64,000 bases of DNA, from positions 83,524 to 147,523 of the forward strand of contig CAIKXE010000004.1 of the NCBI GenBank assembly GCA_903831305.1, in the 5' to 3' direction. Shown in pieces: positions 5,610-62,208 of the stretch. This DNA comes from an uncultured bacterium. Its GTDB lineage: Bacteria; Patescibacteriota; Minisyncoccia; Phycocordibacterales; GWA1-40-21. Below the pieces are notes generated by a model, which was not told the DNA's origin, made no database searches, and worked only from the letters and a program-made list of their open reading frames with translations. Numbering within the stretch: position 1 is the stretch's first letter; every line of letters begins with the position of its first letter. Position numbers and translations under genes: made by a program.

Positions 5610-6101
5610 CTATTGTCGGTGGCAGGCAAAGTAGGTGAGACCGGTGGCGATGGCATCATACTCATCGTCATATTTGATTTTTTCGGTTATTGTTATGAGC
5701 TTTTTTACCATCATTATGACTTGGCTCTTATCACTTTTACCATAACCAGTGACCGCTACTTTTATTTGTAGGGGGGTAAATTCTTTTATATCCAAATTAT
5801 TTTTAGCGGCCTCGTAAAGCATTACTCCCCGGGCTTCAGATACCCGCATGGCGGTTTTGGCGTTGGTTTTAAAAAAGAGGGTCTCAATCGCCAGGGCCTC
5901 TGGCGCATATTTTTTAATTAAAGTGGATATTTCTATACCAATCAGGTGCAGTCTCTCTTCGGCGGTCTCGGTGGCCAAAGTTTTAAAACATTCAGAAAAA
6001 AGAAGGACTTCTTTTCCGTTGTTTTTTTCGAGGATAGCAATACCCACTCGTTCATAACCAGGATCAATGGCAATAATTTTCATATTATGATTATAACACA
6101 A
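5610..6101 (-). CDS. ruvC: crossover junction endodeoxyribonuclease RuvC
   Basis: MKIIAIDPGYERVGIAIL N-terminus typical of RuvC. Confidence 0.88.
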   Translation of the reverse strand: MCYNHNMKIIAIDPGYERVGIAILEKNNGKEVLLFSECFKTLATETAEERLHLIGIEISTLIKKYAPEALAIETLFFKTNAKTAMRVSEARGVMLYEAAKNNLDIKEFTPLQIKVAVTGYGKSDKSQVIMMVKKLITITEKIKYDDEYDAIATGLTYFACHRQ

Positions 6102-6152
6102 CCGCCCCGGTCATCAGAATGACCACCCCGCCTTAACTAAGGCGGGGATTAG
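6096..6152. repeat. two-hairpin miniature repeat element, copy A
   Basis: CACAACCGCCCC-GGTCATCAGAATGACC-ACCCCGCCTTAACTAAGGCGGGG; related copies at 20581-20640 and inside polA. Confidence 0.6.
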
Positions 6153-6170
6153 TTGGAATAATAGTAGCTA

Positions 6171-6695
6171 TTATTCTGCATTCGTATAAATTTCCTGCAC
6201 CTCATCATTGTCTTCTAGCTCTTCAATCAGTTTGTCTAATTTGAAGCCATCTTCTTCGGAAATTTCTACCATGGTATTTGGCATATAGCCTTCAGGGGTT
6301 TTAGTAAAAGCCCAAGAGGCACTCCCTGGAGCAGCCAAGGCACAGCCATTGGCGGAAAGAATGTGTTTGATTTCGCCAGCCGCCTTATTCCTATTATCCG
6401 TCAAAGCTTCAATCATCAGAGCTACTCCGCCTGGGCCGTAAGCCTCATACATGATGGATTCCATCTGTGTGGCATTGTCACTCTTTTTTAAGGCGCGTTC
6501 AATATTTTCATTTGGCACATTGTATTCCCGCGCCTTCTTAACCGCGGCTTGCACACCAGCCGCTTTGATATCACCGTTAGCTTTTTTAATTTCCACACCA
6601 ATCACCTTGGCCATCTTGGTATAGATTTTACCCTTACGGGCATCAGTGACCATTTTCTTATTCTTGATTTTTGACCATTTATTATGTCCAGACAT
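6171..6695 (-). CDS. yebC: YebC/PmpR family DNA-binding regulator (short, 174 aa)
   Basis: MSGHNKWSKIKNKK...EAYGPGGVA signature; sits between ruvC and ruvB as in many bacteria. Confidence 0.75.
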   Translation of the reverse strand: MSGHNKWSKIKNKKMVTDARKGKIYTKMAKVIGVEIKKANGDIKAAGVQAAVKKAREYNVPNENIERALKKSDNATQMESIMYEAYGPGGVALMIEALTDNRNKAAGEIKHILSANGCALAAPGSASWAFTKTPEGYMPNTMVEISEEDGFKLDKLIEELEDNDEVQEIYTNAE

Positions 6696-6714
6696 ATTAT
6701 TTTAGAAAATATTT

Positions 6715-7776
6715 TTATAAAAGTTTATTCGGGTTCTTTAACTTGAGATGCTGCTTGGCGCGCTCGGTGATGGTCCGGCCACGGGAAGTCCTCTCAATAA
6801 AACCAAGTTGAAGCAGGTATGGTTCATACACATCTTCAATCGTCGCTTGTTCTTCTGACAGAGCGGCGGCTAGGGTGTTTAGCCCTACTGGCCCACCGTT
6901 AAACTTTTCTTCAATCACGGTGAGGAGGGCGCGGTCAGTGGCATTCAAGCCCACCTCATCAATCCCCAGGAGGTTAAGGGCCTCCATCACGGTTTCTTTA
7001 GATAATTTACTCTCTCGGACTTGAGCCAAATCCCGGCTTCTCTTTAACAAATAGTTGGCAGTGCGGGGAGTAAACCTACTTCTCTTAGCAATCTCAGTTT
7101 TGGCTTCGGTCTCAATATCCACTTTTAGTATTTTAGCGGAGCGATGAATAATTTCCTCTATTTCTTCATTAGTATAAAATTCTAGTTTAAAAACTCCACC
7201 GGAAAAACGCGAACGGAGCGGGGCCGAGAGTAGGGCAATACGAGTGGTGGCGGCAATTAAAGTAAAAGGGGGGAGATCAAGCTGAATTGTTCTAGCTGAT
7301 GGTCCCTTACCAATAATAATATCCAGAGAGCCGGACTCCATGGCCGGGTAGAGCACCTCTTCAATTGCTTTATTGAGTCGGTGAATCTCATCAATGAATA
7401 AAATATCACCGGGGGATAGGTTTGTCAGGATACTTGCTAGGTCACCCACCTTTTCTATGGCGGGACCGGAGGTCGCTTTGAGCTGAGCGCGAGTTTCTTT
7501 GGCAATTAAATGGGCCAGGGTGGTTTTACCGAGTCCGGGCGGACCATAAAAAAGTAAATGTTCTGGCGGGTGCTTCCTTTGAGCCGCGGCCGTTAGCAAA
7601 ATTTGCAGATTATCTTTGATGTTCTTCTGGCCGATATAGTCCTTCCAAATAGTGGGCCTAAGGGTCTGATCTAGGAAGTTTACATCCCCTTCACGGCTAG
7701 CCACTACGTCCGTATCCTGGCTTGTTTGTTCAGTCTTTTGACTTTTAGTAATAGAATCTTTGTTTTTGCTTGACAT
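6715..7776 (-). CDS. ruvB: Holliday junction branch migration helicase RuvB
   Basis: Walker A GPPGLGKTT, AAA+ lid, C-terminal winged helix. Confidence 0.92.
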   Translation of the reverse strand: MSSKNKDSITKSQKTEQTSQDTDVVASREGDVNFLDQTLRPTIWKDYIGQKNIKDNLQILLTAAAQRKHPPEHLLFYGPPGLGKTTLAHLIAKETRAQLKATSGPAIEKVGDLASILTNLSPGDILFIDEIHRLNKAIEEVLYPAMESGSLDIIIGKGPSARTIQLDLPPFTLIAATTRIALLSAPLRSRFSGGVFKLEFYTNEEIEEIIHRSAKILKVDIETEAKTEIAKRSRFTPRTANYLLKRSRDLAQVRESKLSKETVMEALNLLGIDEVGLNATDRALLTVIEEKFNGGPVGLNTLAAALSEEQATIEDVYEPYLLQLGFIERTSRGRTITERAKQHLKLKNPNKLL

Positions 7777-7847
7777 ATTTTTTGTTTTATGCTAAGCTAC
7801 TATAAGAAGCCTATGGTGCGTGTCGGAGGCTTTTTTTTGTACCTTTC

Positions 7848-8012
7848 CAGAGTATAAATCTCTAAGCAATTGGATCGTTTGCGCGGTTTACGAATTTTTC
7901 CGAGAGGACGGCCTGGTCTACACCTTCGGGTGCTCTGCGAGACCTATCCTTTAAGAACTGTTTAACTTTTGGTATCTAATATTGAAAGTATTGCTTAGAG
8001 ATTTATGTTCTG
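7848..8012. repeat. 17-nt perfect inverted repeat (ataaatctctaagcaat / attgcttagagatttat) enclosing a ~120-nt GC-richer core with a cUUCGg loop
   Basis: seen directly in sequence; see findings. Confidence 0.5.
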
Positions 8013-8102
8013 GATTCTCTATTTCTTTATACTAGAACTATTTTTAATATTTGCAACTGTGGAAAAGTTTTAAGACACAAGATTTTACTCTAGTGAAGCT
8101 GA

Positions 8103-9788
8103 TTAGTCACGACTTTCAATATCAATCACCCGCCCAAGCTCATCGAGTGAGCTTACTCCCTTCAAAATTCTGATCACGCCGTCTTGTTTCATATCTAAAA
8201 GATTTTGTGAGGCAGCCGCGGCCTTGATATCGCGATCCGAAGGGTTGTTAATAATAGCGTCCTCCACTTCCTTTTTCATCAAAATTACTTCTGTAATAGC
8301 AATACGCCCTTTATAGCCAGTTTTGTGACAGACTTCACAACCCACTGCTTGCCAGATCTTTTCAGTTTGAATATTAGCTAAATAAGTCTTGTCAGTAATA
8401 GTGGAGAGGGTGTGGTCAATAAATTCTTTTTCCTTGGCTGTTGGGGTGACCTGCGCTTTACAGTTGTTGCAGAGTTTTCTGATAAGTCTCTGGGCCATGG
8501 CCACGTTGATAGCGGAAGAAATAATTTTTGGGTTCACTCCGAGGTCAATCAGACGGGGGAAAGCACCCGCGGCGGTGTTGGTGTGCAAAGTAGAGAAGAC
8601 CAGGTGACCAGTCAAGGCGGAGTTGATAGCGATAGTAGCGGTTTCACCATCACGGATTTCTCCCACCATTATTACATCTGGATCCTGGCGCAAGGCGGAA
8701 CGCAAACCTGAAAGAAAAGTATAATCTTTTTCTTCTTCTACTTGGGTTTGGACAATACCTGGTAGGTGATATTCGATCGGATCTTCAATGGTAATTATCT
8801 TTACATCAGGAGAGCTGATCTTTTTCATAAAAGCATAGAGGGTCGTGGTTTTACCAGAGCCGGTGGGACCCGTGATGAGGAGCATGCCGTTTGGTCTCTT
8901 GATTTGTTCCAGTAAGGATTTTAAAGTGCGGTCTTCAATCCCAAGCTCTTCGATCGGCACAGCAATTGATTTTGGGTTTAAAAGTCTCATCACAATACTT
9001 TCATTATAGGCACCTGGTAAAACAGAGGAGCGGATTTCAATATCGTTATCTTGTATTTTGACACTAAAACGCCCATCCTGGGAGGTATTTTTTATGTTTA
9101 ATTTCATCCCGGACAATAATTTTATGCGGGACAAAAGTAATTCGTATGTATCAGTATCAAATTCAAAGACACTGATGAGCACGCCATCCAGTCTGAAGCG
9201 GATCCGGACATAAGCTTCTTCTGGCTCCACGTGAATATCAGAAGCGGAGAGGGCCAGGGCACCAGCGATCATTACTTCCATCATCTTGGAAATCTTATAA
9301 GCCTTTTTAAGGGACAAAATTTCCTTGATAATAGCTGTAACATCATCAACCTTTTTGATTTTATTCATATATTGAAGCACTTGGTCGGTAGAAATATCAA
9401 AAGTTCCGGCTGTGCTGTTTACTGCGTAAGATAAATCCTTATAGCGGTCCCAAGCCTTTGCTAGGCTAGCGGTGGTGGCCATGCTGGTCTGTATTTTATA
9501 ACCTTCATCAGCTAATTTTTTTAAAATAATGATTGCCTTATCATTCTTGGGTGAAAATACAGCGACTTGGATTTTTTTACCCACTTTTTCATAAACCGCT
9601 ATCTTTGCCTCACGAGCAAGCTCCTCCGGAATCAAACGAAGGGCGTCAGTATTTATCGGCACCGGCTTAAGATCAATAAAATTTAAACCATACCTAGTGG
9701 CTAGAATACGAATAACATCGTCTTCCTCTTTTTTATAGAGCTCTTCTAGACGCTTGGCTTGTTTATCTTCGTTAGCAAAGTCTGACAT
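8103..9788 (-). CDS. pilB: type IV pilus assembly ATPase PilB / GspE family
   Basis: Walker A GPTGSGKTT, Asp/His boxes, C-terminal Cys4 tetrad (CNNC...CEVC). Confidence 0.88.
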   Translation of the reverse strand: MSDFANEDKQAKRLEELYKKEEDDVIRILATRYGLNFIDLKPVPINTDALRLIPEELAREAKIAVYEKVGKKIQVAVFSPKNDKAIIILKKLADEGYKIQTSMATTASLAKAWDRYKDLSYAVNSTAGTFDISTDQVLQYMNKIKKVDDVTAIIKEILSLKKAYKISKMMEVMIAGALALSASDIHVEPEEAYVRIRFRLDGVLISVFEFDTDTYELLLSRIKLLSGMKLNIKNTSQDGRFSVKIQDNDIEIRSSVLPGAYNESIVMRLLNPKSIAVPIEELGIEDRTLKSLLEQIKRPNGMLLITGPTGSGKTTTLYAFMKKISSPDVKIITIEDPIEYHLPGIVQTQVEEEKDYTFLSGLRSALRQDPDVIMVGEIRDGETATIAINSALTGHLVFSTLHTNTAAGAFPRLIDLGVNPKIISSAINVAMAQRLIRKLCNNCKAQVTPTAKEKEFIDHTLSTITDKTYLANIQTEKIWQAVGCEVCHKTGYKGRIAITEVILMKKEVEDAIINNPSDRDIKAAAASQNLLDMKQDGVIRILKGVSSLDELGRVIDIESRD

Positions 9789-32731: not shown

Positions 32732-33856
32732 ATGAAAAAAATATACATATATTTAGGTTTAGTTGTTATTGTGCTTGCGGGGGCGGTTATGGTTTCTAGA
32801 AATCAAACCACACTTGGGCCGGTCAAGATCGGCGTTATCGGTCCAGTGACTGGTAGCTCCGCTGGGGTTTATTATGAGCCATTGAAAAAGGGGATTGATA
32901 TTGCTCTGGCGGGGATAAACAAGAGTGGTACTAAATTAGCGGTGGTGTATGAGGATGATCAGCTAGATGGTAAATTATCAGTTTCGGCCTATGCTAAATT
33001 AAAAGCAGAAGGTGTGCGGTACTTTATCCTAAACGGTAGTCCAGCGGCGGCCGCCGTCGCTCCACTGATCAAGGCTGATGGAAACGTGTCCATGGTGCCC
33101 TCAGCCCTCCTGACGGCTTACAAGGATGATAGCCCTCTGACTTGCCGTATTGCTCTGACCGCTGACAATTATGGTCCAGCTTTCACTGATTTGTTCTTAA
33201 ATAAATTAGATAAGAAGCAAATAGTCACCTTGGTTTCAAATACCGAGGGGGCGATGGCTATCTATAATGTATTCAAGGAAAAGTTTGAGGCCGCAGGCGG
33301 GCAGATAGTCCAGGCGGAAACCTTTGGCAAGGATGACATTGATTTCCGTACCCAGATTACTAAAATCAAAGCTAATAAAAAAGCCGAAGCGATTGTGGTT
33401 ATAAACTGGTCAAGCACTATTGTACCTATGCTTACTCAGATAAAAGAACTTGGCCTGACCTTACCGATCTTTGGTGACACGGGGACAATCAAGAATGCGG
33501 CTATCAAGGATTTGACTCTGGCTAACGGAATTACTTTCTTGGACTATTCTTTCACCACTGATGGTAACAATGTTTCAGGCATTGCTCAGAAATTTATCAG
33601 TGATTATGCTTCCTTAAATGGTGGAAGCAAGCCGAGTATCCAAGCCCTCCAAGGTCATGACTCTGTAAGTATCCTGGCTCATGCTCTTGCTCAGGCTGAT
33701 GCTAAGAACCCAACCAGTGTGGCAAACTATATTGTAAATAATATTAAGGATTATGAGCTGGCCGGTGGTAAATTCTCCTTCAACAGTACCTGTGAAGCTG
33801 ATAGAGATATTGCCGTCAGACAAGTGGTAAACGGGGAGATTGTAGATGTAAAATAA
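32732..33856 (+). CDS. ABC transporter substrate-binding protein, Leu/Ile/Val-binding family (SBP-2)
   Basis: VKIGVIGPVTGSSAGVYYE; paralog of SBP-1/3. Confidence 0.8.
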   Translation: MKKIYIYLGLVVIVLAGAVMVSRNQTTLGPVKIGVIGPVTGSSAGVYYEPLKKGIDIALAGINKSGTKLAVVYEDDQLDGKLSVSAYAKLKAEGVRYFILNGSPAAAAVAPLIKADGNVSMVPSALLTAYKDDSPLTCRIALTADNYGPAFTDLFLNKLDKKQIVTLVSNTEGAMAIYNVFKEKFEAAGGQIVQAETFGKDDIDFRTQITKIKANKKAEAIVVINWSSTIVPMLTQIKELGLTLPIFGDTGTIKNAAIKDLTLANGITFLDYSFTTDGNNVSGIAQKFISDYASLNGGSKPSIQALQGHDSVSILAHALAQADAKNPTSVANYIVNNIKDYELAGGKFSFNSTCEADRDIAVRQVVNGEIVDVK

Positions 33857-61624: not shown

Positions 61625-61794
61625 GACCCTTACAGGGTCAGTACCCGTGTTTGGATTTTTTATTCTCCTTCGAAAGACTCAGGATCTAAAAAATCTCAAA
61701 CAGGCTTCGCTTCCGCCCCGTAAGCAAAATCATTTGCTTACTCATCTCCACATAACAAAAATCGCCCATCAGAATGAGCGGGTTTTTGTACATG

Positions 61795-62208
61795 TGGAGA
61801 TGGGCGGAATCGAACCGCCGTGCATAAGAGTATCCTAATTGCTTCTACAAAGTCTAGTTAATTTATCTTCACTTGCGTGAATTTAAGTCTGTGATTTCAA
61901 AAAGAACAAAATGATCACAAACCGATCCTCTAATTTCTTTCCGTACCGAGAAAATTACGGAATATAATCTAATTTTATGTCACCCAGACCAGTTTATTAG
62001 ATATGGACTGATTGGATGCCGCTTAGGTTTGTTTTATGAAACGTAAGCGAAAGCAAAGTTGTTGGCCGCAAAATATGGGGACACAACAGACTTTACTCTT
62101 GAAACAATGCTATTAGCAGTTGTTTGTTTATTAACATTTTAGGTGTGTATAATAATGCACCACTTTGCGCAATCAAGGACAGATCAGATGTCTAGGCCGA
62201 TCATCCCC
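61795..62208 (-). ncRNA. ssrA: tmRNA (ssrA), ~414 nt
   Basis: 5' GGGGATG pairs with 3' CATCTCC-A; 3' T arm GGCGG-TTCGATT-CCGCC; smpB 0.4 kb away. Confidence 0.6.

Follow-up and report, generated by a model that had tools for sequence, protein, structure and literature searches.

The bacterial Y RNA YrlA combines a long terminal helix with a multi-branched module, includes a domain that resembles a transfer RNA (tRNA), and has rsr as its neighbour. In cis-antisense RNAs and pairs of face-to-face promoters (IsrR/isiA, GadY/gadX, pR/pL of coliphage 186), collision, occlusion or formation of an RNA duplex is expected. Here we describe a locus that can be compared with both, from a member of the Patescibacteria (candidate phyla radiation), a huge and mostly uncultured branch of the bacteria with tiny genomes and few known regulators. 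The locus is the 326-nt gap between ruvB and a pilB-type gene (7777-8102, both genes on the - strand) in a 64,000-nt stretch of contig CAIKXE010000004.1, hereafter the window. An earlier reading of this DNA (the original prediction) had called the gap unusually long, which is roughly right, many neighbouring genes lying less than 100 nt apart, and had favoured a toxin messenger RNA (mRNA). We assign a probability of roughly 75% to a different reading, in which the spacer holds a single-copy gene for a structured non-coding RNA (ncRNA) of ~170 nt, encoded on the + strand and belonging to a Patescibacteria family linked to ruvB. The family appears to be undescribed and, judging by the sequences retrieved, is restricted to Patescibacteria of the Parcubacteria/Minisyncoccota type.

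The spacer is built around an inverted repeat. The 17-nt perfect repeat ATAAATCTCTAAGCAAT named in the original prediction is real, but its arms lie at 7854-7870 and 7990-8006, not at 7850-7866 and 7991-8007. At 92% complementarity, the repeat reaches 25 nt (7846-7870 and 7990-8014), and the chance expectation is ~0.43 matches to a repeat arm in the window at up to three mismatches. The C(UUCG)G tetraloop hairpin reported between the arms was also found (caccTTCGggtg at 7921-7932, with the UUCG loop at 7925-7928); indeed, all of the sequence features listed earlier exist, with coordinates off by 1-4 nt. Folding was carried out on both strands, as had been proposed, and both are stable, the + strand more so. 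The 181-nt segment 7840-8020 reaches -64.2 kcal/mol on the + strand (z = -6.4), a stability matched by none of 200 shuffles; the - strand reaches -50.9 kcal/mol (z = -5.5). On the + strand, 7846-8014 folds as a four-way junction consisting of a terminal helix (P1), two hairpins (P2 and P4) and a long arm (P3):

7846-7870, + strand: 5' strand of P1 (left repeat arm), a 25-bp terminal helix that joins the 5' and 3' ends, from the fold

7871-7890, + strand: hairpin P2, from the minimum-free-energy fold

7892-7963, + strand: long irregular arm P3, from the fold and from helices 2 and 3 of the alignment

7965-7989, + strand: hairpin P4, of the CUUUU...AAAAG type, from the fold

7990-8014, + strand: 3' strand of P1 (right repeat arm), which holds the ATG of a 22-amino-acid open reading frame (ORF), from the fold and the alignment

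The P3 arm is itself composite. It comprises a basal helix, a conserved AGGA/UCCU helix (AGGAC at 7905-7909, CUAUCCU at 7944-7950), a neighbouring G·U-rich helix of 8 bp whose family consensus, 5'-GUUCUGGU / 5'-ACUGGGGC-3', contains four G·U wobbles, and a variable apex that is capped in the window by the C(UUCG)G tetraloop.

This architecture is shared across the family. When 125 distinct homologs were folded singly, P1 plus three branches formed in 100, with a terminal helix of ~22 bp. RNAalifold, applied to a MAFFT alignment of 65 diverse members, recovered P1, the P3 core and P4, with double substitutions in 31 of 37 pairs. When 98 distinct sequences were aligned with a covariance model, pairing was seen in 92.7% of cells, compared with 81.0% when partners are shuffled and 38-51% when they are slid by 1-3 columns. 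Compensatory changes occur at 31 of the 37 pairs in this alignment, and the 452 compensatory cells far exceed the 128 ± 15 found in shuffles, none of which reached 452 in 500 trials. Such compensatory substitutions are expected of an independent small-RNA gene.

The helices differ in how they are conserved. P1 contributes 22 pairs to the 98-sequence alignment, 20 of them with compensatory changes (94.5% of cells paired), and its inner 14 bp (AAUCUCUAAGCAAU / AUUGCUUAGAGAUU) are nearly invariant. P4 has compensatory changes in five of six pairs and a mean z of -3.3 over the 98 homologs. P2 sequences are unrelated between homologs, yet the hairpin forms in all of them (mean z = -2.4); both P2 and the P3 apex are too variable in length to align, and hairpins are nonetheless always formed there. 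Sequence conservation concentrates in the inner 14 bp of P1, the AGGA/UCCU helix and the G·U-rich helix of P3. The original prediction had regarded a conserved core between unconserved arms as a sign of a different RNA class. The opposite was found, the arms being the most conserved part and covarying where they vary. On balance, we think it probable that the product is a stable, abundant RNA that works as a ribonucleoprotein and not as an mRNA, with the invariant 14 bp of P1 and the internal loops of P3 as candidate protein-binding sites.

Homologs were collected by two routes: RuvB-anchored retrieval, which gave 80 loci (one genome per species), and an independent arm-only pattern, TCTCYARRCAAN{96,126}TTGYYTRGAGA, which matched at least 120 metagenome contigs. 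A homolog lies just upstream of ruvB, head-to-head, in all 22 loci with the closest RuvB. Among the arm-pattern matches listed, ~108 of 120 contigs carry the RNA, the other 12 having failed the nhmmer cut-off, and ruvB stands beside the RNA on the same side and the opposite strand in every listed contig with enough flank. This linkage holds at every testable locus across RuvB identities of 60-90%, and pilB is a frequent, though not universal, neighbour on the other side. The carriers are uncultured Patescibacteria labelled Parcubacteria, Paceibacteria, Minisyncoccia, Kaiserbacteria or 'Saccharibacteria'. The two neighbours in the window are as follows:

6715-7776, - strand: ruvB, with the Pfam domains RuvB_N, AAA_lid_4 and RuvB_C and its start codon at 7774-7776

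8103-9788, - strand: pilB-type T2SSE ATPase (Pfam T2SSE at 5e-120), convergent with the 3' end of the RNA

A covariance model of the family (R1) finds exactly one copy in the 64-kb window, on the + strand at 135.4 bits. It also finds weaker homologs (L010, L032, L027, L040) that have a different P1 sequence, the same architecture and a more distant ruvB. The sole other arm-like match in the window, at 33581-33597 with two mismatches, was rejected as a second copy, the model finding one copy only. Three of the 12 contigs below the nhmmer cut-off, which had weak covariance-model scores (L087, L090 and L160), were rejected as members, being unrelated hairpins with neither ruvB nor pilB. Of these, L087 (2534-2677) and L160 (2289-2426) hold in common an unrelated conserved hairpin with the same arm motif and no ruvB or pilB nearby. 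L090 (525-682), on a short metagenome contig, is a near-perfect hairpin of ~145 nt (-80.6 kcal/mol) that could be a mobile element or an assembly artefact.

These data bear on whether the element acts as DNA, either as a miniature inverted-repeat transposable element (MITE) or other mobile inverted repeat, or as a cruciform or protein-binding site. A perfect, highly sequence-conserved terminal inverted repeat of 17 nt is what such an element might show, and a MITE was among the alternatives in the original prediction. We regard this explanation as having next to no chance. A MITE or mobile element is excluded because the RNA is single-copy in 64 kb, keeps constant synteny with ruvB and is absent from viral contigs, where four arm-pattern matches were found and none is the RNA. 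Moreover, the interior shows the covariation of RNA helices, including G·U pairs specific to one strand, and the element is flanked by a promoter and terminators.

We then considered which strand is functional. P1 contains 224 G·U or U·G pairs against 46 A·C or C·A, the latter being the combinations that would be wobbles if the other strand were functional. One P3 pair can form on the + strand only: of 98 sequences, 78 have U·G at this position, 10 have C-G and six have U-A. Half of the G·U-rich helix of P3 would become A·C mismatches on the - strand. RNAalifold scores the + orientation at -33.6 and its reverse at -10.5; singly, 116 of 125 homologs are more stable on the + strand, by a mean of 12.3 kcal/mol. 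Downstream of P1, 52 of 115 loci have at least seven T within 8 nt on the + strand, compared with 11 of 115 on the other strand. Since the wobble counts, folding energies and downstream U-runs agree, this comparison of sequences and folds places the RNA on the + strand, antisense to pilB as well as to ruvB.

The same data disfavour a functional - strand, in which the element would be a structured 5' leader (riboswitch or attenuator) or an intercistronic element of a pilB-ruvB mRNA. Given that the complement folds well (-50.9 kcal/mol, z = -5.5), that promoter-like sites in the ruvB sense lie upstream of it in 40 of 103 loci, and that ruvB-sense terminators are nearly absent before ruvB (2/103), this possibility had to be weighed, and we consider it very improbable. 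The wobble statistics of P1 favour the + strand by ~5:1, the four conserved G·U pairs of P3 would turn into four A·C mismatches, and the alifold energy is three times weaker. In addition, a conserved promoter and terminators flank the RNA on the + strand, and about half of the loci have their ruvB promoter on the downstream side of the element. A ruvB-sense leader or riboswitch was therefore rejected, the wobble and energy asymmetry disfavouring a conserved structure on that strand.

The original prediction had centred on a type I toxin mRNA of the hok/ldr/tisB kind, in which the fold-back would hide the start of a 22-amino-acid hydrophobic peptide. This ORF is present, at 8005-8073 on the + strand (MFWILYFFILELFLIFATVEKF), its ATG lies within the 3' strand of the long helix, and its product would be hydrophobic. 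However, the start codon is missing in the three closest relatives, which have ATC, ATC and ATA at that position, and an ATG stands there in only 57 of 120 distinct homologs. The frame varies from 2 to 35 codons among homologs and no conserved peptide was found; the hydrophobic stretch is the translation of T-rich DNA from the terminator and promoter. The fold-back over the start does exist, but it is the terminal helix of the ncRNA, with the ATG forming part of P1 and its AUG pairing with CAU. The weak Shine-Dalgarno (SD) sequence ascribed to the ORF carries no weight, since an SD-like motif precedes only four of the 54 long ORFs in the window and this genome scarcely uses such motifs.

On comparison of these sequences, the 22-amino-acid ORF is judged not to be a gene, and the annotations of three other assemblies of this organism leave the gap without one. 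The RNA is single-copy, vertically inherited and syntenic, unlike the patchy or multi-copy distribution that a toxin would lead one to look for. A search for the promoter of an antisense small RNA, which a type I system would need as its antitoxin, was likewise unsupportive: opposite-strand promoters point only into the ruvB operon mRNA, with ruvB-sense terminators in 2 of 103 loci. We give a toxin-antitoxin locus virtually no credence.

A near-consensus promoter of the extended -10 type would drive synthesis of the RNA as an independent, stable transcript. The signals predicted around the RNA on the structured strand are as follows:

7770-7775, + strand: -35 hexamer TTGACA, the reverse complement of the first bases of ruvB (ATGTCAA)

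7790-7798, + strand: extended -10 TGCTAAGCT (TGn at 7790-7792 and TAAGCT at 7793-7798), from column counts

7807-7838, + strand: 5' leader hairpin followed by U8, terminator-like, between the promoter and P1

8015-8033, + strand: U-rich tail UUCUCUAUUUCUUUAUAC after P1, the likely 3' end or termination zone

The spacer between the -35 and -10 hexamers is exactly 17 nt, giving the motif TTGACA-N14-TGn-TAnnnT, which matches the genome's own promoter consensus, (A/G)TGnTATAAT. Across 103 distinct loci, the -10 columns are conserved at TG (93 and 92), T-12 (92), A-11 (92) and T-7 (94), with the three inner positions free. Of the 103 loci, 101 have a + strand motif of the form TTGnnn-N13-15-TGnTAnnnT in the interval from ruvB to the RNA; the opposite strand has it in none, and shuffles give 0.65 on average. 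The distant homologs L010, L027, L032 and L040 have the same motif upstream of the RNA without overlap on the ruvB ATG, from which we conclude that the promoter travels with the RNA. A promoter of its own, with U-runs and terminators on the structured strand, would be typical of an independent small-RNA gene. Together with the conserved, covarying structure, this + strand promoter motif bears out the fallback of the original prediction, an 'other ncRNA'.

The promoter would also account for an unusual feature of ruvB. The conserved block at the ruvB start, AGCTTAGCATAA...ATGTCAAGC on the ruvB strand, reads as a promoter on the + strand, and the first bases of the gene, ATGTCAAGC (7774-7782, - strand), are conserved as DNA far beyond what the N-terminus requires, with ATGTCAA in 106 of 130 loci. 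This conservation apparently arises because these bases double as the opposite-strand -35 element TTGACA. Two candidate - strand promoters were rejected. The conserved TAGCAT upstream of ruvB is not a ruvB -10 element, the TG-n-TA-nnn-T pattern (T-7 in 94/103) fitting the opposite strand only. A predicted promoter, CCGACA-16-TATAGT (7826-7799), is not conserved in L001, L124 and L149 and is probably due to chance.

From the promoter position, transcription would start near 7805, and it would end in the U-rich tract after P1; the primary transcript thus probably runs from ~7805 to ~8030, with a core of ~170 nt at 7846-8014. Many homologs have U7-8 directly after P1 on the + strand, or else a separate GC hairpin with a U-run, and strict terminator matches downstream of the RNA number 22 on the + strand and 13 on the other. 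The hairpin and T8 run noted originally are real (AAGCCU...AGGCUU with T8 at 7831-7838, the whole feature spanning 7807-7838) and also occur, with a variable loop, in the close relatives L001, L124 and L149. A terminator scan of the window did not call this hairpin, its loop being too large. Among 103 loci, at least 17 have a terminator-like hairpin between promoter and P1 on the + strand, and two have one on the ruvB-sense strand. The hairpin could serve as an attenuator, as a protective 5' hairpin or as a separate tiny RNA.

Because the promoter sits on the ruvB start codon, we also asked how ruvB itself might be transcribed. No promoter of the genome's type is evident next to the ruvB ATG. 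In 54 of 103 loci, versus 17 in shuffles, the interval separating the RNA from ruvB has the ruvB-sense motif TGCTATAAT at 45-80 nt from the ATG, and this proximal promoter faces that of the RNA. Beyond the RNA, on the pilB side, a ruvB-sense TTGnnn-N16-18-TAnnnT motif is found in 40 of 103 loci, compared with 15 on the other strand and 10 in shuffles. The window has such a site, conserved in L001, L124 and L149:

8029-8056, - strand: promoter-like site TTGCAA (8056-8051), 16 nt, TAGTAT (8034-8029), a putative ruvB-sense promoter that would point through the complement of the RNA to ruvB

Terminators in the ruvB sense lie between the RNA and ruvB in only 2 of 103 loci. A clade comprising L012, L016, L084, L097, L143, L151, L167 and L194 has a longer spacer between the RNA and the ruvB ATG (~190-270 nt). 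It has a ruvB-sense TGCTATAAT fixed ~68 nt from the ATG and a second + strand motif, TAGTATAAT, nearer the RNA, and therefore has multiple interleaved promoters.

Given the positions of these ruvB-sense promoters, ruvB transcription must cross the RNA promoter, and in many genomes, that of the window included, it also crosses the whole complement of the RNA. The promoter of the RNA, lying on the ruvB start codon, would thus face the path of ruvB-sense transcription or lie within it. This geometry predicts mutual interference, in which RNA synthesis and transcription of ruvB-yebC-ruvC would impede each other through promoter occlusion or collision and through sense-antisense overlap at the 5' ends. 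Such interference would explain why the synteny with ruvB is unbreakable. That the coupling is regulatory and not incidental is a tentative suggestion, with the odds somewhat against it.

A stronger version of this idea holds that the locus is purely a cis-acting antisense or interference device that sets ruvB-yebC-ruvC expression, the fold serving only for stability or kissing-loop pairing. The head-to-head linkage in every testable locus, the overlap of the RNA promoter with the ruvB start codon, ruvB-sense promoters that face or read through the RNA, and the depletion of ruvB-sense terminators between RNA and ruvB are all consistent with this proposal. We nevertheless consider it unlikely, as the 14 invariant base pairs of P1, the conserved helices of P3 and the preserved junction exceed what antisense pairing needs. 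Furthermore, clades with a proximal ruvB promoter have the structured core outside the ruvB mRNA, and the distant homologs keep both RNA and promoter without the start-codon overlap.

Several points weigh against the reading of the spacer as an independent ncRNA gene coupled to ruvB, or limit parts of it. The percentage of paired cells in the 98-sequence alignment is inflated because that alignment was fitted to the model, although the MAFFT-only alignment gave the same helices. The loci used for the column counts were chosen with the regular expression ATGTC[AT]A, so that the invariance of the -35 element there is partly by construction; the -10 statistics and the count of 101/103 are unaffected by this selection. 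The promoter, start site and 3' end are all predictions from sequence, and efficient termination at the 7807-7838 hairpin would block synthesis from the RNA promoter. The suggestion of protein binding comes solely from invariance within helices. The geometry of ruvB-sense promoters differs between clades, and bidirectional terminators separate pilB from the RNA at some loci; therefore, a single antisense mechanism is not universal. Finally, the location of the promoter within the start of ruvB could by itself be enough to preserve synteny.

Other features of the locus and window deserve brief mention. The gene order is ruvB-yebC-ruvC, with ruvB first, in the window (5610-7776, - strand) and in L201 (3001-5167); ruvA is not adjacent to the cluster in either. 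The yebC of this cluster encodes only 174 amino acids, which is short for the family. An 11-nt perfect inverted repeat (7979-7989 / 8112-8122) joins the 3' strand of P4 to the last codons of pilB and is probably due to chance. Elsewhere, the 64-kb window has six tRNA genes and a one-piece, standard transfer-messenger RNA gene (61792-62208, - strand, 98 bits). An extended -10 box, (A/G)TGnTATAAT, precedes many window genes and stops 6-10 nt short of the ATG; examples lie upstream of 9788, 10742, 20567, 32556, 54772, 58547 and 63114. The position of these boxes and the scarcity of SD-like motifs (4/54 long ORFs) suggest that leaderless mRNAs, or mRNAs with very short leaders, may be widespread in this organism.

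If the ncRNA reading holds, more than 100 species of Patescibacteria have kept an RNA gene whose product has a complex fold, which has a near-consensus promoter and which is tied to the beginning of the recombination-repair operon. The RNA would be a new and easily searchable marker for the clade, and might represent a new ribonucleoprotein or a new principle of regulation in reduced genomes. Its recognition would also correct annotation, as gene callers leave the gap empty or might call spurious peptides in it, and the interleaved promoter and start codon offer a clean natural case for studies of transcriptional interference.

We compared the RNA with known families. No match to Rfam 15 was found in the whole window at gathering thresholds or in 7700-8180 at E<=10, and 35 homologous loci gave no consistent match over the RNA (15 loci at gathering thresholds and 20 short loci at E<=10). 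The scan thus excludes the models for 6S RNA, signal recognition particle RNA, RNase P, Y-like RNAs, toxin-antitoxin systems and riboswitches, among which the 6S and toxin-antitoxin models had been put forward for testing. ARAGORN found no tRNA-like gene in 7600-8300, and full-text literature searches turned up no account of such an RNA.

The original prediction had offered a 6S-like RNA as an alternative, and the element might be this lineage's 6S-type RNA, binding the RNA polymerase holoenzyme. A length of ~170 nt, a long closing helix, a single copy and a near-consensus promoter suit this role. No canonical 6S RNA was seen in the sequence examined, which covers small parts of each genome, so that one may lie elsewhere. 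We judge a 6S-type identity quite improbable. Neither the window nor 20 homologous loci yielded a match to the Rfam 6S models, even at E<=10. Where a 6S RNA would have a rod with a large open central bubble, this RNA has a four-way junction whose side hairpins covary, and conservation concentrates in the helices, unlike in 6S RNA.

Just as 6S RNA mimics an open promoter, the four-way junction might mimic a Holliday junction and bind, titrate or guide RuvA, RuvB, RuvC or YebC. The basis for this analogy is the junction itself, in an RNA with a strong predicted promoter, the adjacency to ruvB wherever testable and, in this organism, the presence two genes downstream of ruvC, which encodes the junction resolvase. 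The A-form arms of an RNA junction, which differ from B-form DNA, count against it, and we hold this idea to be a long shot.

Overall, the RNA shares traits with several described systems and differs from each. Like 6S RNA (SsrS, RF00013 and relatives; ~170-185 nt), it is single-copy, ends in a long helix, has a strong housekeeping-type promoter and is not an mRNA. It differs from 6S RNA in having no covariance-model match, a four-way junction instead of a rod with a central bubble, helices that are strongly conserved in sequence, and linkage to ruvB instead of ygfA. Type I toxin mRNAs (hok/Sok, ldr/Rdl, tisB/IstR) resemble it in their long-range 5'-3' fold-back and, in the window, in the short hydrophobic ORF; here, however, the ORF is unconserved and the RNA is vertically inherited, single-copy and syntenic. 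With YrlA it shares a terminal helix with branches and an RNA gene kept beside a particular protein gene, but it has no tRNA-like domain according to ARAGORN and no Rfam match, and its neighbour is ruvB and not rsr. As in cis-antisense systems, the RNA lies opposite a neighbouring operon and its promoter is interleaved with the 5' region of that operon, whereas its fold and helix sequences are conserved beyond the needs of pairing and the overlap with ruvB mRNA varies between clades. Orphan ncRNAs such as raiA, OLE and the motif classes of the Breaker laboratory are likewise lineage-restricted, multi-helix junction RNAs with covariation and no obvious cis target. From all of these, the present RNA is set apart by matching none of them in Rfam 15, in sequence or structure, by its Patescibacteria host, and by a promoter embedded in the start codon of the neighbouring gene.

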